Positions 6,647-19,787 of a stretch of DNA of 64,000 nucleotides are shown here, one piece after another. The notes under the pieces are model-generated. The model was not told the DNA's origin and searched no databases. It was given only the letters and a program-made list of their open reading frames with translations. The DNA lies in contig OZ244170.1 in the NCBI GenBank assembly GCA_965216565.1, forward strand, positions 4,672,001 through 4,736,000. Direction: 5' to 3'. Made by a program: the position numbers and the translations under genes. Within the stretch, counting starts at the first letter, position 1, and each line of letters opens with the position of its first letter. This DNA comes from Bythopirellula sp. (lineage in GTDB: Bacteria; Planctomycetota; Planctomycetia; Pirellulales; Lacipirellulaceae).

Positions 6647-6701
6647 TCGCGGTGACTTATCTGCCTCGAATTCATCGGCTGGTTCAATTAATGGACGGGC
6701 C
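6606..6701 (+). repeat. Repeat block A, copy 1 (96 bp)
   Basis: Direct repeat of 7922-8017 with 2 mismatches. Confidence 0.9.
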
Positions 6702-6856
6702 GGGTGCCATGCCCACGCTTGTTGGTTTTCTGAGTCGTGACGACACGCCAACACACATAGCCAGGCTGCCTGCTCCGAGGTGTTGCGTGGGCATGTTGGA
6801 GAATCAGCAAGTGCGCTAAGACCTTCAGTTGCTTCGGCGTGGCCATGGCACCCGGC
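6699..6856 (+). repeat. Repeat block B, copy 1: 158-bp MITE/REP-like element
   Basis: Terminal inverted repeat gccgggtgccatgcccacgc / gcgtggccatggcacccggc (19/20); direct repeat of 7766-7923 with 2 mismatches. Confidence 0.9.
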
Positions 6857-6916
6857 TTATTGTCCGGGGGTATTAATAGGCGTTGCCAGGGGCTGTCTGG
6901 TGATTTGGGACAGAAG

Positions 6917-7519
6917 TTAGATCCGCTTTCGCAATCGGCAGCTCATGCCCAATATTCCGAGGGTGACGAGGATAAAGGTATTGGGCTCGGGACTGGCATG
7001 CACCGAGATCGTGTCGACGGAGCTTCTGTACGAAAGCGAACAGCTAGGGCATATTGAGGCATGGATTTGCGCGAGCTCATCGAAATCATTTGCGTCATAA
7101 GATGTTGGAACATCCGGCGTGTCGTATATGTTGGCAGTCGACCTCAGGGATAAGAACCCAGTTTCACCGGGGGCGAAAAAGAAATCAAACTCTACACCGT
7201 CTGCATAGATGCCAGACCAAACATTAAATACGTGAACTTCATACGAACGGCCCTCGATCGTTACATCGAAAAAGCTCCCATCATAATTTGCAGCTGCTGG
7301 CGTAGAAGATACGACAGATGCGGTGGGATCGACAGTGAACGACCCACTATAGGTGTCGCCGACAGACTTGCCAGGAAAAAGTGCACCCAAAGCGTTGTCC
7401 TGAACTACGCCACTGAAGTTGAATGTCAGCGGCGCAGCATTGACGGAAGCTGCAATGGCGATCACCGACAGAATGCTAAGGCATGCGTGAAAGCTCAGTT
7501 GTATGACTGTTGAAATCAT
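6917..7519 (-). CDS. PEP-CTERM sorting domain protein
   Basis: Signal peptide; C-terminus SPEPNTFILVTLGILGMSCRLRKRI. Confidence 0.85.
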   Translation of the reverse strand: MISTVIQLSFHACLSILSVIAIAASVNAAPLTFNFSGVVQDNALGALFPGKSVGDTYSGSFTVDPTASVVSSTPAAANYDGSFFDVTIEGRSYEVHVFNVWSGIYADGVEFDFFFAPGETGFLSLRSTANIYDTPDVPTSYDANDFDELAQIHASICPSCSLSYRSSVDTISVHASPEPNTFILVTLGILGMSCRLRKRI

Positions 7520-7765
7520 GTAGCTTTCCTTCTGGTTATGGATTGTCCAATCACAGGAAGATACTCAATACTCAGACCTCAGAAGTTGCTTGAATTAGCT
7601 AAATAGATCGTCGGAAACAATGGCAATATCCACTAGAGATGGATTCATCCATGACTACTTGCGTAAATCGGCTCAATGATGATCCAGATAGTTAAGTCAG
7701 GGAACACCACTAGCTGCCAGTGCTGGCAATTTTATGGCCAAGTCTAGCGTCTTGACTCAACGTCA

Positions 7766-7923
7766 GCCGGGTGCCATGCCCACGCTTGTTGGTTTTCTGA
7801 GTCGTGACGACACGCCAACACACATAGCCACGCTGCCTGCTCCGAGGTGTTGCGTGGGCATGTTGGAGAATCAGCAAGTGCGCCAAGACCTTCAGTTGCT
7901 TCGGCGTGGCCATGGCACCCGGC
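7766..7923 (+). repeat. Repeat block B, copy 2
   Basis: Near-identical to 6699-6856. Confidence 0.9.
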
Positions 7924-8017
7924 GATCAACCCTGGGCTACGGTATGTAACGCCTTCGGCGTATCGCGGTGACTTATCTGCCTCGAATTCATCGGCTGGTT
8001 CGATTAAGGGACGGGCC
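7922..8017 (+). repeat. Repeat block A, copy 2
   Basis: Near-identical to 6606-6701. Confidence 0.9.
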
Positions 8018-8253
8018 AGGTCGGGGATTGGTGGGTGCGGCACCTGCTCTGCGGACTCGCGCGGCCATTTGGTGCGTGAAATACAGCGTTTCCCCCTTCT
8101 AATACTAGTCTTTGAGCCCTTGCCTAAGCAGCAGGGAGGCGGTAAATTGGTTGATTCTCCACTGCCCGAGGCAGAGGCCAGATAGAGCTTGGTTGGCACC
8201 ACTTGGCTGCGAGCCACGATGATGTGAAGGATTGGAAGAAGGTTCAGAAACTT

Positions 8254-9366: not shown

Positions 9367-10161
9367 ATGGCGCAGACCATTCTCGAAGAGATCGTCGCCA
9401 CCAAGCGCCAAGAAGTAGCCGCTGCTAAGAGTCGCACTCCTCAGCAAGACTTGCAGTCCGCCCTGGCGGGTGCACCGCCGGTGCGAAATTTCTTTGCAGC
9501 ACTCGACGCTGAGGATTCTATTCAGCTGATTGCTGAAGTGAAGAAGGCCAGTCCTTCGGCAGGGATCATCCGAGCTGATTTTGATCCCGTCTCCATTGCC
9601 AAGATCTACGAGTCGCATGGGGCCGCCTGCATCAGTTGCTTAACTGATGAGTCGTACTTTCAAGGCAGCTTGGAGTACCTCAAGCAAATCCGTCAGCAAG
9701 TATCGATCCCAGTACTTCGCAAAGACTTTATCATTGATAGCTATCAGTTGCTCGAAGCGCGAGTCGCTGGTGCCGATGCCGTCCTGCTAATTGCCGAGTG
9801 TCTGGACGATTGCAATCTGCGAGCGCTGCACAACGAAGCCATCGAACTAGGCATGACGCCACTAGTCGAATTCTACGAGCCGGCAAACCTGGAGCGCGTG
9901 TTAGCAGCGGGCGCGAGGCTTATTGGCGTGAACAACCGCAACCTGCACACGTTCGAGGTCGATCTCGATCATACCTTGCGTATGAAAGAGATCATTCCCG
10001 ACGAGTGCCTGCTGGTGGGCGAGAGCGGAATCAAAACCCATGCGGACGTCACTCGACTGCAGCAAGCAGGGGTCGACGCCATCCTGGTGGGCGAAACGCT
10101 CATGCGTCAGTCCGATATCGGACAGGCAGTCGACACACTGCTGGGACGCAGTGCGACTTAG
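9367..10161 (+). CDS. trpC: Indole-3-glycerol phosphate synthase
   Basis: IAEVKKASPSAG, LRKDFI, GVNNRNL and ESGI motifs. Confidence 0.96.
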   Translation: MAQTILEEIVATKRQEVAAAKSRTPQQDLQSALAGAPPVRNFFAALDAEDSIQLIAEVKKASPSAGIIRADFDPVSIAKIYESHGAACISCLTDESYFQGSLEYLKQIRQQVSIPVLRKDFIIDSYQLLEARVAGADAVLLIAECLDDCNLRALHNEAIELGMTPLVEFYEPANLERVLAAGARLIGVNNRNLHTFEVDLDHTLRMKEIIPDECLLVGESGIKTHADVTRLQQAGVDAILVGETLMRQSDIGQAVDTLLGRSAT

Positions 10162-10925
10162 CTGTCCTGCGAATTCCGGAGTCTTCGTCTTGTTACTAGC
10201 AAGGAGCCGGCCGACAGCATTGCCAAGCCAACTGTGGATGGCTCAGGTATGAGCATCGTTCCCGAGATGGTCATAGCACCCGAGGCGAGTACTGCTTCCA
10301 ACGGATTGCCGGCGGTCATTGGCAACGTAGCCGTGTACGATACGACGATCGGCTGATTGGGATCGAACGCAAGCCCACCGGGTAGATTCTGGCTATCCAG
10401 CGACGAGGCAGTTCCAGTGATCAGGAAGACATTATCTGTAATGGCCACGTTGAGCTGCTCGAAGTTCAGCTTCAAGAAGCGGCCAGCATCATCGAACCAA
10501 TGAAATCCGAAGTCGTCGGTATTGGCACCTACCGAAGCGAAGTTCAGGCCCTTGGTCAACTGACCGACGCCATCCAAGGAAAAATCGCCCCACATGTCGT
10601 TCATAAATGGCGAGCCTGTGATGGGAGTCATATCGAGTTCGAAGACGGCACCCTGCAGAGGATCTGCTTCGTTTGCATCCATATTGCCACCCGGTTTGCC
10701 AGTCATATCGTAAATGGCACCGCCGGCCTGGTTGTTGTAGATCATGTCCATATCGGACAGGATGATGTTGATGGTTCCTGCGGAAGCATGCGAACTGAGC
10801 ATGGCCCCCAGAACGAAGGCTAGGAGAGTGAGCATCACTCGACCTGCGCCATAGGGGCGTGACATCCAATGAGGCACGTTCGACGTGCAATCTCGTGGGC
10901 TACAAACTTGTGTGTGGCTAAACAT
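10158..10925 (-). CDS. PEP-CTERM sorting domain protein
   Basis: Hydrophobic signal segment LTLLAFVLGAMLSSHASA; C-terminus IPEPSTVGLAMLSAGSLLVTRRR; start uncertain. Confidence 0.85.
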   Translation of the reverse strand: MFSHTQVCSPRDCTSNVPHWMSRPYGAGRVMLTLLAFVLGAMLSSHASAGTINIILSDMDMIYNNQAGGAIYDMTGKPGGNMDANEADPLQGAVFELDMTPITGSPFMNDMWGDFSLDGVGQLTKGLNFASVGANTDDFGFHWFDDAGRFLKLNFEQLNVAITDNVFLITGTASSLDSQNLPGGLAFDPNQPIVVSYTATLPMTAGNPLEAVLASGAMTISGTMLIPEPSTVGLAMLSAGSLLVTRRRLRNSQDS

Positions 10926-11111: not shown

Positions 11112-11327
11112 TTACCAACTCATTCGCTTATTGGCTCGTTGGTGCATGCCGCCTATTTTTTTGGATTTACTTTTGGTCGATTTGACTTTTCTTTTCGTAT
11201 TGGCTCGCGAGCGAGTTGCACTTGGTCGCGGAGCTCGATTTTGCCGACGCGGCGCTATCGAGTAAGCCATGGAATAATCAGTGTCTCCATCAAGCAATTC
11301 AGGTTCTTTTTCTTTTCTGTTGCGCAT
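11112..11327 (-). CDS. Small basic protein (71 aa) ending GGMHQRANKRMSW
   Basis: Acidic N-terminal part with DYS, K/R-rich C-terminal part; C-terminal motif shared with the ORF at 12330-12509. Confidence 0.7.
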   Translation of the reverse strand: MRNRKEKEPELLDGDTDYSMAYSIAPRRQNRAPRPSATRSRANTKRKVKSTKSKSKKIGGMHQRANKRMSW

Positions 11328-11979
11328 CGGTAGAAATCCTGCTATGGGTTAAGGGGGTTATCCGGTCGCCGCCTCTGGCCATTGATTCACCGCTTTGGGG
11401 AGGTGATTCTTGAGTAGGTGGTGGCATACTTGCCATCAACATTTGGATCGAGTTGGAAGTGGATTGATGTTCCAGTCCTGAGCTAGCGGTACGCGCTACT
11501 GCCTTGCGCGCCTCTTCAAACACCCAGTTGATCTTGCGAGGGTTGGTCACCTGGGGCAGGTAGGACCACGCGCCTAGACCTCGAGCCCAGATTTCTTCGC
11601 TCGAGTCTTCGCTGTTCCCACAAAGGATGAGAAGCGAATCGGAGATATCGCAGACCTTTGCCGATGCTTCGCGCATCTTCTGATAGTTGACTTGATTTGG
11701 CTCCGGCAAATCGACAATCGTTAGTGGCACCTTCATGCGGAAGAGGTGCTTAATGAACTTGCCTGCGTTGTTGCAAACGATTGCATCCCACGCCTCGTTC
11801 TCAGCGGCAGACTGCAAACCCTCGGCTCGGGAGTCGTTCCAGGAATAGATCAGGCAGCGCAGTAGGCCTGGTGGAGCTAACATCCGCATCGGTGCACCAG
11901 GTTTCCCGACAGGTTCTGTCGGCTGAGGCACCGCTTGCGCGTGTTCTGTAACAGTGGAATTCGGAGAGGCTGACGCCAC
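11299..11979 (-). CDS. Degenerate response-regulator receiver (pseudo-receiver) protein
   Basis: Receiver-like pattern CLIYSWND..LTIVDLPE..LLILCG..EEIWARGLGAWSYLPQ; ggag RBS before GTG. Confidence 0.62.
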   Translation of the reverse strand: MASASPNSTVTEHAQAVPQPTEPVGKPGAPMRMLAPPGLLRCLIYSWNDSRAEGLQSAAENEAWDAIVCNNAGKFIKHLFRMKVPLTIVDLPEPNQVNYQKMREASAKVCDISDSLLILCGNSEDSSEEIWARGLGAWSYLPQVTNPRKINWVFEEARKAVARTASSGLEHQSTSNSIQMLMASMPPPTQESPPQSGESMARGGDRITPLTHSRISTDAQQKRKRT

Positions 11980-12329: not shown

Positions 12330-12509
12330 CTACCAAGTCATCTTGCGTCGGCGACGCTTGTGGATTCCATTCACAGATTGCGGACCCTTGCCACGCTTCC
12401 GGCCGTGCGTAGGACGCCGCGACTTCGAAGCTTTGATAGGAGTGGATCGGCGGAATGTGTCGTTGCTGTAGTCAGCTTCCATAGCTTCATAAGATTGGGA
12501 ATGACTCAT
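12330..12509 (-). CDS. Small basic protein (59 aa) ending NGIHKRRRRKMTW; absent from the ORF track
   Basis: AAGGAG RBS 9 nt before ATG; MSHSQSYEAMEADYSNDTFRRSTPIKASKSRRPTHGRKRGKGPQSVNGIHKRRRRKMTW; first ORF after a sigma54 promoter. Confidence 0.75.
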   Translation of the reverse strand: MSHSQSYEAMEADYSNDTFRRSTPIKASKSRRPTHGRKRGKGPQSVNGIHKRRRRKMTW

Positions 12510-12662
12510 TGACTAGGTCTCCTTAGACGAATCACAGTTGCTCTAGCACGTGGGCGCGGGGCCAACATCACGCAGCTAGTTGTTCATGCCGTCAGCAATA
12601 AGCTGACGGGGAGTGAAGCGTTGCCGGTCGTTTTCCAGTTCGCTTCGACAGCAACTGTTAAC

Positions 12663-12677
12663 GCGATTCGCGTGCCA
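12663..12677 (-). promoter_or_regulatory. Sigma54 -24/-12 promoter
   Basis: Minus strand TGGCACGCGAATCGC, i.e. GG-N10-GC with a perfect TGGCACG -24 element. Confidence 0.72.
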
Positions 12678-12762: not shown

Positions 12763-12871
12763 TTGCATCACCAAACTAGTGATGCAATTTGCCGTGAAAT
12801 TCACTTCGCATTAGTCGGCTAGATCAGAATGGCAGATTCACTACCTTGGTGATCCATCACCATTTGGGTGA
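12763..12871. promoter_or_regulatory. Three candidate enhancer (UAS) boxes, TCACYA-N3-TRGTGA
   Basis: TCACCA-AAC-TAGTGA (12768-12782, inside the palindrome ttgcatcac-N7-gtgatgcaa), TCACTA-CCT-TGGTGA (12838-12852) and TCACCA-TTT-GGGTGA (12857-12871). Confidence 0.68.
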
Positions 12872-13079: not shown

Positions 13080-14051
13080 TTATTCTTGGTCGTTTTCGAT
13101 TTGAGCTAGCAGCCTAGTCATCGTGTTGGGGTGAACTCCCAGCAGTTCGGCCGCTTTGCCCTTGTGACCATCAGTTGTTTTCAGCGCTTGCTGCACCGCA
13201 GCCTGACGCAGACGGCCGAGGTCGGTGAAGGGCAGCCGCGATTCTCTGCCATCGTTAATATCTAGCCCTGGAAGCATAGGTTCGCATTCCAAGACGTAAC
13301 TCTGCTCGATGACGTATCCAAGTTGTCGTAGGTTGCCAGGCCAATGATATTCGCAGAACTTGCGCAGTATTTCGGCGTCGGGTTGCCAGACTTCTTGCTC
13401 ATACTGGGCTGCATACTTGCGTGAGAAAAAGTCTATAAAACTAGGGATATCCTCAGCTCGCTCGCGAAGCGGAGGCATGTGCAATTCAACCAAATTGAGT
13501 CGGTAAAACAGGTCCTCGCGGAAGCGCCCTTCTTCCACATCGCGAATTAAATTGCGATTGGTTGCGGCACAAACTTGCACATCGATCTTCACCGGATGGG
13601 CAGCGCCTACGGGTGTGACTTCGCCTTCCTGCAGAACTCGCAGCAGTTTTGGTTGCAATTCCAAAGGCATATCGCCGACTTCGTCGAGGAATACTAGGCC
13701 CTCGTGAGCCGATCGGAAGACACCTAAACTCTTGCCTGCCGCACCTGTAAACGCTCCGCGTTCGTGGCCGAATAGCTGGCTCTCAGCGAGTGTGGCGGTG
13801 AGTGCCGCGCAATTGACCGGGACAAATGGCTTAGAATGCCTAGGTCCCAAACGATGAAGAAGCCGCGCCCATACTTCCTTGCCCGTACCGGTTTCGCCGG
13901 TAATTAGCACGGTACATTCCACTTGAGCAGCACGCTCAGCGTGGTGCGCGATCTTGTTAATTGACGGATCGCGTCCTATGAGTAGGCTCGCTGGATCCTC
14001 AGGCGGCAGGGAAGCCACCGAGTCTAGCGAAACCGCTATAGTAGATGCCAT
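13080..14051 (-). CDS. Sigma54-dependent enhancer-binding protein without an N-terminal sensor domain
   Basis: Walker A GETGTGKE, intact GAFTGA, FLDEVG, FREDLFYRL, WPGNLRQL, C-terminal HTH; only ~20 aa precede the AAA+ domain. Confidence 0.93.
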   Translation of the reverse strand: MASTIAVSLDSVASLPPEDPASLLIGRDPSINKIAHHAERAAQVECTVLITGETGTGKEVWARLLHRLGPRHSKPFVPVNCAALTATLAESQLFGHERGAFTGAAGKSLGVFRSAHEGLVFLDEVGDMPLELQPKLLRVLQEGEVTPVGAAHPVKIDVQVCAATNRNLIRDVEEGRFREDLFYRLNLVELHMPPLRERAEDIPSFIDFFSRKYAAQYEQEVWQPDAEILRKFCEYHWPGNLRQLGYVIEQSYVLECEPMLPGLDINDGRESRLPFTDLGRLRQAAVQQALKTTDGHKGKAAELLGVHPNTMTRLLAQIENDQE

Positions 14052-17620: not shown

Positions 17621-18535
17621 CTAGGCTGCTTGATTGGCGATCGCGGTTTCTTCCAGTGCGCAGACCGACAGCTTCATGCTGGTTGCGGCTTCCGAGAATT
17701 GTTTGCCATCCAATAGGATGGTGCGAGCCGCTTCGATGGCGAGCGTATTGCCGCCCGCGGTGGCAATTGATTCTAGAGTTTGCGGGCCGACGGTCGGCAC
17801 GTCGAAACGCATGTCTTGGTTGGGTTTGGCGACTTTCACCACCGTGAAACCGCCTCCCTTGCAGAGTTCGCCGGCGCGACGGATGCACGCATCGGTGCCT
17901 TCAATTGCCTCGACGGCGATCACCGCCTGGTTCTTTACACAAACAGTTTGGCCGACGTCCAACCCGCCCATTTGCCGGGCCAAATTCCAGCCGAAGGTGA
18001 CGTCTCGATGCTCTTTGTCGCTGAGCCGTCTTCCCGCAATATGGCCGGCGGGCACTAGTAATTCGGGAGCAAAGTTTGTGGCTGGCTCGAAGGTGATGCC
18101 ATCGCGGGCAAAAATGTCGACCACCGTTTGCAGCAGTGTATCGTCTTTGCGATCTTTCGTACCAGCTAGAAAATGGGGCGAGAAGGCACGCAGCGTTTTC
18201 CAGTCGGGACGATGTTTGAGCCACCAGCGTGGTTGAAACAACAGGACCTTATGCACTTTGCCCGCCATTGTAGCTTGGGAAACTCCCCACTGACGAAACA
18301 GTCGGACCGCCTTGCCAATGCCCCCGATACCGATCCAATCGAACTCGTCGCATAAATCGGCCAGTCGCGGTTCTGCGTGGTCGCGGATGCCGATTCCAAC
18401 CACGCGCCGGCCTTGTTTGCGCAATGCACAAGCGACGGCGAAGGGGAAGCTGCCCCAACCGGCTAAAAGCCCAATGGGCGGTTCCGGAGAGGAAGGCTGA
18501 TCGCTGGACGACTGTTTGCGGAATCTTTGGAACAT
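17621..18535 (-). CDS. lpxI: UDP-2,3-diacylglucosamine diphosphatase LpxI
   Basis: GLLAGWGSFP, DVGQTV, AVEAIEGTD, KPNQDMRFDVPTVG; adjacent to lpxD. Confidence 0.9.
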   Translation of the reverse strand: MFQRFRKQSSSDQPSSPEPPIGLLAGWGSFPFAVACALRKQGRRVVGIGIRDHAEPRLADLCDEFDWIGIGGIGKAVRLFRQWGVSQATMAGKVHKVLLFQPRWWLKHRPDWKTLRAFSPHFLAGTKDRKDDTLLQTVVDIFARDGITFEPATNFAPELLVPAGHIAGRRLSDKEHRDVTFGWNLARQMGGLDVGQTVCVKNQAVIAVEAIEGTDACIRRAGELCKGGGFTVVKVAKPNQDMRFDVPTVGPQTLESIATAGGNTLAIEAARTILLDGKQFSEAATSMKLSVCALEETAIANQAA

Positions 18536-18553
18536 GTTGTTGCTTTGGTGGCT

Positions 18554-19609
18554 TTAAGCAGCTTGTTCGTTTTCGCCAGGTTTCTCTGCATCCTTCACCA
18601 GCTTGGCGACTTGCCTCTGGAGAGCGCGGAACTCGCGACGCATATCGGGGAGCTTGGAAATCGCAGCCATCTGAAGTTTTTGTTGCCGTAGTGGAGCGGC
18701 CGGCGAACCTAATACCATCTCGCCTTCTGGAACATCGTTGGGAACACCCGCTTTGGAGCAAAGCACAGCTCCGGTGCCAATGTGGACGTTGTCGCGAACA
18801 CCCACCTGCCCTGCCATCACCACATAATCCCCGGTGGTAGTGCTGCCGGCGATGCCGACCTGCGAGCAAATGAGGTTGTGCTTGCCAAGTCGGCAGTTGT
18901 GTGCGATTTGCACCAAGTTGTCGACCTTCGTGCCCGCACCAATAATCGTCGGTCCGTAAGTTCCTCGATCGATGGTTACGCAGGAGCCGATTTCGACATT
19001 CTCGTGGATTTCTACGTATCCCAATTGGGCCGAGAGTTGATGAGCACCCTCGACTTGGTTGTATCCAAAACCGTAGGCACCAATCACGGTACCCGAATGA
19101 ATGATCGAATTTGCGCCGACTTGTGTGTCTTCGTAGAGTACGACATTGGCAAACAGCGTGACGTTTTCGGCAATGACGCAGCCGGGCATGATTTTCGCGC
19201 CGGGATAAATCACCGTACCGCTGCCAATCGAAACATCATCCCCGATGTAAGCTTGCGGATGGATGTCGACGTCTGCCGCGATCTTGGCCGACTCGCTGAT
19301 TGTGGCCAGGGGGCTCAACCCCGGTCGAACGATCTCGCGACGAGGACGGAAATGTTGGACGATAGTTGAAAAGGCTTTGTGAACGTCCGCGACCACAATG
19401 GTGGGAATATCTTTCCATTCCACTTCTTCGGGAACAACAGCCGCTACAGCCGCTGACTCGGTAAGTTGCGACGCGCGTTCGATGCTGTCGGCTAGTGTGA
19501 TCTCTCCTGCGCGGGCCATTGCCAGCGTGGCGGCCCCTTTGATTTCTATTGATTCGCCGCGCAGCTGGCCACCCACCAATTCGGCAAGTTGGCTCAAGGA
19601 AGTCGCCAT
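18554..19609 (-). CDS. lpxD: UDP-3-O-acylglucosamine N-acyltransferase LpxD
   Basis: Hexapeptide repeats, GFGY, IDRG, KVDNLVQIAHNC. Confidence 0.94.
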   Translation of the reverse strand: MATSLSQLAELVGGQLRGESIEIKGAATLAMARAGEITLADSIERASQLTESAAVAAVVPEEVEWKDIPTIVVADVHKAFSTIVQHFRPRREIVRPGLSPLATISESAKIAADVDIHPQAYIGDDVSIGSGTVIYPGAKIMPGCVIAENVTLFANVVLYEDTQVGANSIIHSGTVIGAYGFGYNQVEGAHQLSAQLGYVEIHENVEIGSCVTIDRGTYGPTIIGAGTKVDNLVQIAHNCRLGKHNLICSQVGIAGSTTTGDYVVMAGQVGVRDNVHIGTGAVLCSKAGVPNDVPEGEMVLGSPAAPLRQQKLQMAAISKLPDMRREFRALQRQVAKLVKDAEKPGENEQAA

Positions 19610-19787
19610 CCCAGAATCCTTTCTATGTCCAGCACTATCGTGCTTTAACAATCCATTGCCAGCAGGGCTCGACGGAGAGGTCGCAAAATTGAGCCGAACT
19701 GGGCCCCGGATAGTACCTTGCCGGGGACATTTGCAACAAGAGCATTACTAGCAGAATCGTGCCGCTAGCAGTGTGCGGAAAACCATC

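Follow-up and report, generated by a model that had tools for sequence, protein, structure and literature searches.

An arginine-rich microprotein family with a conserved C-terminal tail in a sigma54 regulatory module of Pirellulales

The 59-amino acid open reading frame described here (copy A) and its 71-amino acid paralogue (copy B) are, as judged by sequence comparison, real and homologous members of a conserved family of Arg-rich proteins of about 60 residues. This is a new microprotein family and its genes are part of a new variant of a sigma54 regulatory module. As to its function, we tentatively propose that the 59-amino acid product may be an unfolded Arg/aromatic peptide, which would bind c-di-GMP together with a pseudo-receiver encoded next to it and would thus represent a split analogue of the Cle proteins. 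The following features are referred to by their positions in the window, which is the whole 64,000-nucleotide stretch of DNA that was analysed; the last one lies outside of it.

12330..12509, minus strand: copy A, a 59-amino acid small protein with an acidic N-terminus, a basic remainder and a conserved tail of 12-14 residues
11112..11327, minus strand: copy B, a 71-amino acid paralogue of copy A without a promoter of its own
11299..11979, minus strand: stand-alone pseudo-receiver (domain at about 11476-11874)
13080..14051, minus strand: sigma54 enhancer-binding protein (activator) with AAA+ and Fis-type HTH domains only and no sensory domain
10158..10925, minus strand: PEP-CTERM-type secreted protein (PF07589 E 0.011, below the curated cut-off)
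12519..12524, minus strand: AAGGAG ribosome-binding site of copy A, within a predicted hairpin of the leader
12663..12677, minus strand: sigma54-type -24/-12 box TGGCAC-N5-TCGC, 5' of copy A
12763..12787, strand not applicable: palindrome with the conserved enhancer TCAC-N7-GTGA, 105 nt 5' of the box
about G000:C1:568630-568848 (L001:6631-6849), minus strand: third copy, stand-alone and preceded by a sigma54 box of its own (profile match at G000:C1:568633-568824)

Both open reading frames were confirmed on the minus strand as the sequence-only reading had described them, and with 59 residues copy A falls under a 60-amino acid ORF cut-off. Its AAGGAG ribosome-binding site was also confirmed and lies 9 nt 5' of the ATG. 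The homology claimed for the two C-termini held: local alignment gave a score of 52, a value attained by 6 of 5000 shuffles, and when all six frames of the 5.2-Mb genome were searched for G-x-H-x-R-x4-[MWFLIV]-[ST]-W-stop, only copies A and B were retrieved. With a profile built from 46 members we recovered A, B and the third copy of this genome (E 1e-18, 3e-12 and 2e-8). Outside the window a further, fourth candidate gave E 0.6; it lacks the tail and was dropped. Across their N-terminal and linker parts A and B share about 20% identity. The net charge of copy A is -3 over the first 20 residues and +15 over the remainder, and AlphaFold2 modelled this protein as disordered (pLDDT 62, pTM 0.14). 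Copy B overlaps the end of the receiver ORF by 29 nt in this genome. The DYS motif, which had been listed as a common feature of both N-termini, turned out to be a chance match since it is present in 4 of 24 A-type proteins and in 1 of 91 B-type proteins; the dipeptide DY was found in 21 of the 24 A-type vs 4 of the 91 B-type proteins.

The suggestion that the tail is under selection for a functional role was borne out. Over the last 12 codons pN/pS was 0.15 and dN/dS about 0.05, and across the whole gene dN/dS was about 0.1, which indicates purifying selection rather than a value near 1, although these dN/dS values are rough since the synonymous sites are close to saturation. An alignment of the 19 full-length orthologues from the genus, each with 59 codons, contained no indels (pS 0.70, pN 0.19). 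The codons of the invariant G, H and R of the tail vary synonymously, and the alternative sense frames contain stops in 19 of 19 and 18 of 19 orthologues.

At 50% identity the family comprises 290 clusters. Its members are about 63 residues long with an acidic N-terminus, and the median net charge of 119 proteins was about +12. All 24 candidates compared with copy A were homologues (identity 56-88%), and the profile search found 124 proteins among 1070 candidates. The consensus of the tail is [FYVH]-N-G-[IM]-H-[RQ]-R-x-x-[KR]-[RK]-x-x-W. Of the best 150 cluster representatives 141 carry G at position -12, and all 141 of these have R(-8); H(-10) and W(-1) were counted in 139 sequences each, I or M(-11) in 136, R(-7) in 130 and R(-9) in 125, with F or Y at -14 in 83 and F, Y or H in 93; these counts are inflated since the hits were picked by a profile of members ending in W. 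When the last residue was left free, 104 of 118 rows stopped 12 residues past the G and 92 of these ended in W, 7 ended after 10-11 residues, 6 were fused and 1 was a likely false positive. Thus, the terminal M-[ST]-W-stop seen in the two copies stands as far as W-stop is concerned, which is common, but it is not invariant: the second copies of some genomes terminate in R and the paralogues of family f29 in YF, YS or YTM. B-type tails carry P, V or K at -14 and Q at -9, and in stand-alone copies the His is frequently replaced. An acidic residue (D or E) anywhere in the last 11 positions was found in only 10 of 246 tails.

Homologues with the conserved tail, on which the proposal of a family depended, proved to be widespread in Pirellulales. 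The family was found in 23 of 24 genomes of the genus, in 59 of 60 genomes of the taxonomic family (mostly with two copies) and, with a narrow profile, in 59 of 151 genomes of the order, and there are 1 to 4 copies per genome. It was not found in the genomes of three families of Pirellulales (f19, 0/14; f20, 0/9; f24, 0/14). A draw of 300 genomes across the phylum gave two weak hits at low sensitivity, and this nearly blank result is weak since only 21 candidates were scored per genome. When the exact DNA pattern was searched in 185,579 species, one genome per species, 98 stretches were obtained, and among the matches listed Planctomycetota were named in 77 of 80 titles; these matches include Lacipirellulaceae and Aeoliella records of identical gene order. 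A named Aeoliella genome carries the cassette (L179). A looser DNA pattern gave a high background over the 151 genomes and was used only for positions beside the receiver. In Pfam there was no match for A or B at E up to 1, and NCBIfam gave none for A and a single chance low-complexity match for B. No PHROG family was matched by more than one of the 46 members, and tblastn against phages gave nothing better than E 6-8. A PDB sequence match to IceA2 (repeated NGIHKR, E 0.028) was dropped because no stretch passed. In the ESM Atlas copy A matched solely unnamed Planctomycetota clusters, and for copy B there was no named cluster above 0.76. In the literature, searched at the level of listings, no description of a peptide/receiver/activator module was found.

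In the family of the window the gene order is activator, A, receiver, B and PEP-CTERM gene; in other families the receiver comes first and then the peptide. The pseudo-receiver is the commonest neighbour of the peptide (110 of the 138 loci examined, 18 loci being too short to show one), and a PEP-CTERM gene occupies the slot 3' of B in many loci. Of the 151 genomes 72 have the receiver and 71 the activator, and 68 have both. All but two of the 72 receiver genomes yielded the peptide as well (70/72); in G071 and G098 none was seen within about 5 kb. We read this overlap as co-inheritance and attach no statistical test to it since related genomes are not independent. Taken together, these data define a microprotein family that had not been annotated, and with it a compact sigma54 module of three parts (sensor-less activator, pseudo-receiver and Arg-rich peptide) and a conserved enhancer. 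The module is present in about half of the sampled Pirellulales genomes and is linked to PEP-CTERM surface proteins; gene regulation in planctomycetes is barely mapped.

Several further observations were made around this cassette. At three loci of family f29 (L228, L229, L230) the activator gene is duplicated; one or two additional peptide genes go with it and a receiver is lacking. The last residue of these additional peptides is aromatic or small but not Trp. In L075:6120-7436, L115, L117, L128, L166 and others the PEP-CTERM gene 3' of the peptide starts with a distinct basic frame; this conserved, very basic frame of about 110 residues (MPRSRPTR...RRRRVWMHHFAPEM...) precedes a second Met and the signal peptide, and it may be either a coding extension or a structured leader. 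In many loci lpxD and lpxI are located 5' of the activator (positions 17621-19651 of the window; L092, L098, L114), and the end of the cassette is met by a convergent peptidase C25 gene or by trpC.

Copy A had been proposed to be the first gene after a promoter, and this was supported by the sigma54-type box at 12677-12663. Such a box is present 5' of A in 19 of 23 loci, where 0.5 would be expected. It heads the first gene in either gene order (19/23 as given above; 37/56, 2.3 expected), and 5' of B it was found in 2 of 85 loci (2.4 expected). The enhancer was found with at least 7 of 8 matches in 62 of 78 promoters vs 2.25 expected, about 105, 116 or 127 nt upstream of the box, and the adjacent activator is predicted to bind at the TCAC-N7-GTGA palindrome. 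In this genome the operon has the sole outstanding combination of enhancer and box among 323 sigma54-like sites; its scores were 20.3 and 19.9 vs 14.5 and 7.9 for the next best, its own promoter being part of the training set. The extended TGCA arms of the palindrome are particular to this genome (1/36).

The leader of A (12510-12655, minus strand) is 142 nt long and structured (z -3.2), and the genome carries 4 CsrA-like motifs. Across the family these leaders measure 75-214 nt, z is below -2 in 21 of 36, and the ribosome-binding site is often paired. A terminator within 60 nt past the stop was found at none of the 48 A loci and at 3 of the 84 B loci. A U-tract hairpin 3' of B (about 11000-10960) was not called a terminator, and its folding was no better than that of shuffles (z 0.38). 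In 7 loci compared with Rfam only tRNAs were reported. In L069:7440-7535 (family f17) and 15 other loci we observed a conserved 85-nt element about 35-60 nt past the stop. It consists of an outer stem CCAACCGCA/TGCGGTTGG, a U-tract and an inner hairpin, often with GGA in the loop; an automatic alignment showed little covariation, and there were zero Rfam matches in two loci.

The family also occurs outside the operon. We inspected 11 stand-alone copies: 7 possess a box of their own (10 or 11 of 11 positions matching), 3 possess the enhancer (7 or 8 of 8 positions), and for at least 5 the next gene is convergent. Since such copies have a promoter of their own, they point to action of the peptide in trans. 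The third copy of this genome is divergent from groEL-groES-groEL-dnaJ-grpE and has a GNAT gene, a tRNA and an integrase-like ORF downstream of it; groEL-adjacent copies recur in the genus (L241, L242, probably L245). Among the orphan loci, L252 proved to be a false positive and there was no hit in L253.

In family f14 the peptide reads through without a stop, via GSGRG, into a hydrophobic signal-like stretch, and wherever the contig was long enough the fusion partner was an FGE-sulfatase/PEP-CTERM protein. Such fusions were seen at 8 loci of two genera (L061:4581-5810, L062-L066, L048, L217), and 4 of them have no Met in the linker. The fused peptide would remain on the cytoplasmic side after signal cleavage. 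In each of the 5 genomes of genus g14 no significant copy other than the fused one was found, and thus a free C-terminus is not always required. At L251:3052-4149 a 366-amino acid open frame ends in the tail-like GIHQRLRRRPGW, which may be chance or another fusion.

The product of the receiver gene was modelled as a receiver fold (AlphaFold2 pLDDT 91; 497 PDB matches at E up to 0.001 in Foldseek). Of the residues at the canonical receiver positions it retains the phospho-acceptor Asp, whereas the acidic pocket, the Thr/Ser and the Lys are lost. Its best-conserved stretch extends from helix 4 to strand 5 (EExWARxLGxWxYLP), and the helix-4 face is conserved and acidic/aromatic. Three positions ahead of the Gly in the helix-4/strand-5 turn, an Arg was found in 102 of 103 placed pseudo-receivers, in 3 of 24 placed (of 47) ordinary receivers of this genome and in 68 of 68 placed Cle-like receivers, the latter from no more than 80 genes that had been fetched by pattern. 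ANTAR-type receivers may likewise carry an Arg at this position, which would be a point against the c-di-GMP reading discussed below. The C-terminal extension of the receiver (11299-11475, minus strand) is about 60 residues long in the window, and most homologues end earlier.

The c-di-GMP reading, which comes in addition to the ribosome/RNA binding, nucleoid binding and activator inhibition suggested by the sequence-only reading, rests on an analogy to the Cle proteins of Caulobacter, which involve a phosphorylation-independent receiver and an Arg-rich region (PMC5677366). As described for CleD, the receiver helix-4 Arg (R113) is required for function (PMC5677366), and the Arg-rich peptide, unfolded when free, binds a c-di-GMP dimer via a motif that includes Y150, G152, P153, D154, R155, R156, R157 and Y163, with R169 of the (R/K)RxxD half being essential (PMC7382256). 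Both systems have a receiver with a degenerate phospho-switch, which in our case would likewise work without phosphorylation, the helix-4 Arg and an unfolded peptide of the type aromatic-x-G-x-x-R-R-R-x5-aromatic. When columns were compared in 71 Cle-like tails, the spacing of our tail equalled that of Y150, G152, R155-R157 and Y163 of CleD; this match was spotted post hoc, and arginine runs match easily. The Cle-like and pseudo-receiver profiles line up at the helix-4 Arg, and the distance from this Arg to the first motif Tyr is 37 residues in the Cle-like alignment, as between R113 and Y150 of CleD. A GGDEF domain was detected in 70 of 72 receiver-positive genomes; it was unmatched in the module genomes G144 (95% complete) and G168 (96%), which both keep the helix-4 Arg.

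The differences from Cle are considerable. In Cle the receiver and the Arg-rich region form one polypeptide, but at the loci mapped here they are separate ORFs. The Cle region has a tandem [YF]xGP[DE][RK]R with DRR-x11-(R/K)RxxD, whereas our family has a single [FYVH]NG[IM]H[RQ]R, in which I/M stands for P153 and H for D154 and which lacks the RxxD half. B-type tails resemble the Cle motif less closely. The tail has no profile similarity to the Cle region (probability 0.1), and the receiver profiles show only generic likeness (probability 17, 9% identity). Cle acts on FliM, but the present module sits in a sigma54 operon without a link to FliM: in family f14 the module was found in 9 of 15 genomes and FliM in 0 of 15, so that the motor target of Cle does not appear to be shared, as far as co-occurrence can tell. 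It also speaks against the c-di-GMP reading that acidic residues are so rare in the tail, that G144 and G168 keep the module without a GGDEF match, and that there is no adjacent receiver at the stand-alone copies or at those beside a duplicated activator.

The sensor-less activator would drive the operon via the TCAC-N7-GTGA enhancer, and if the analogy applies the peptide would fold upon a guanine-nucleotide ligand through the aromatic residue at -14, G(-12), R(-9/-8/-7) and W(-1). The second half-site missing from the peptide could be supplied by the helix-4 Arg of the receiver or by another copy of the peptide, and the loaded complex would set the activity of the activator, or the output of the PEP-CTERM surface protein during attachment. 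In its more far-reaching form, which we consider doubtful, the microproteins of Pirellulales would be diffusible multi-copy c-di-GMP half-sites that form, with the pseudo-receiver, a split sensor for the activator and that became membrane-tethered in one lineage. Such proteins would be a natural counterpart of engineered c-di-GMP-sequestering peptides and would provide a handle on the swarmer-to-sessile control of planctomycetes. A synthetic peptide is within reach and the promoter is defined to the base, so that cheap assays could separate the competing mechanisms.

A close rival to the c-di-GMP reading, and likewise a possibility we would put forward with reserve, is that the peptide is the effector of the operon and that its Arg-rich tail binds RNA, the ribosome or RNA polymerase, which would slow or redirect expression upon firing of the activator. 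The charge of about +12, the disorder, the fixed 12-residue tail, the promoter-bearing stand-alone copies, the long structured leaders of A and the conserved stem element 3' of the gene in one family are all consistent with this idea. A precedent would be HK022 Nun, which has H, Q and R at -10, -9 and -8, the register of B-type tails, as well as basic residues and a near-terminal Trp, and in which R102 has been described to pair with the terminal carboxylate seven residues off (PMC5386594). However, Nun lacks the invariant Gly and Ile/Met, belongs to another host context and gave negative log-odds on the tail matrix, with -8 bits where the lowest-scoring family member reaches 28.5; of 4831 decoy C-termini, 5 did as well as Nun. 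The lack of matches in PHROGs, PDB and phages also argues against such binding, as does the failure to find an RNA element common to all lineages (GGA hairpins in 46 of 195 vs 38 expected) and the g14 copy, whose C-terminus is not free since it continues into a signal peptide.

Alternatively, the peptide may bind the activator or the pseudo-receiver directly and without any nucleotide in a feedback loop like those of PspF-PspA or HrpS-HrpV, a scenario we regard as somewhat doubtful. PspF/PspA and HrpR/S-HrpV are systems in which sensor-less sigma54 activators carry AAA+ and HTH domains only. The activator of the window has the same architecture and its adjacent target operon likely encodes regulators acting in trans; but no homologue of PspA or HrpV was seen, and the activator scored 240 vs the PspF cut-off of 443.55. 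The single outstanding target site, the co-occurrence of peptide, receiver and activator, the extra activators of f29 that bring extra peptides without a receiver, and the acidic/aromatic helix-4 face of the receiver would fit such a loop. On the other hand, the low identity of the N-terminal and linker parts leaves 12-14 residues as the interface, and in three activator-positive genomes (G026, G035, G068) the surroundings of the activator, up to about 5 kb away, showed no tail. A complex prediction for A, the activator and the receiver gave a score of 0.00, and as its controls were not folded, it counts neither for nor against this scenario.

The closest regulatory precedent, the PrsK/PrsR/PrsT system, combines a sigma54 box and an upstream enhancer motif with an NtrC-like activator and PEP-CTERM genes (PMC1569441), and it may resemble the present module in that box, enhancer and activator occur together with such genes. 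The module differs in that its cassette has no kinase, encodes receiver and activator as separate genes, has one main target and involves small proteins; box and enhancer precede the operon and not the PEP-CTERM gene itself. The activator reached 268 bits vs the TIGR02915 cut-off of 502.6, with the match beginning at model position 141, and a table of PMC1569441 lists no PrsK, PrsR or PrsT for Rhodopirellula.

It is improbable that the peptide is a protamine- or histone-like protein that condenses the nucleoid at one stage of the cell cycle. It is small and K/R/S-rich, with 1 to 4 copies per genome, and condensed nucleoids have been reported in planctomycetes; but the invariant G-x-H-x-R...W spacing would not be expected for bulk charge neutralisation, it was not found in whole families of Pirellulales and hardly at all in the phylum draw, and there are membrane-tethered fusions. 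A cis-acting leader or ribosome-arrest peptide governing the downstream gene would explain a conserved motif immediately before the stop, with Trp as last codon, and the 8 in-frame fusions to a downstream PEP-CTERM gene, but it is the least probable option because of the stand-alone copies, at least 5 of them with a convergent gene next, and the absence of terminators near the stop (48/48 A and 81/84 B loci), and A lies about 200-830 nt from the receiver core and the downstream genes vary between copies.

Two minor observations concern other parts of the DNA. About 11 kb past the end of the window, at L060:2087-2255, there is an ORF that is presumably a tmRNA-like shadow ORF. Near-identical stretches at 6652-6920 and 7710-8185 flank a PEP-CTERM gene (6917-7519), and since the same ORF starts occur twice, this pair suggests a local repeat.
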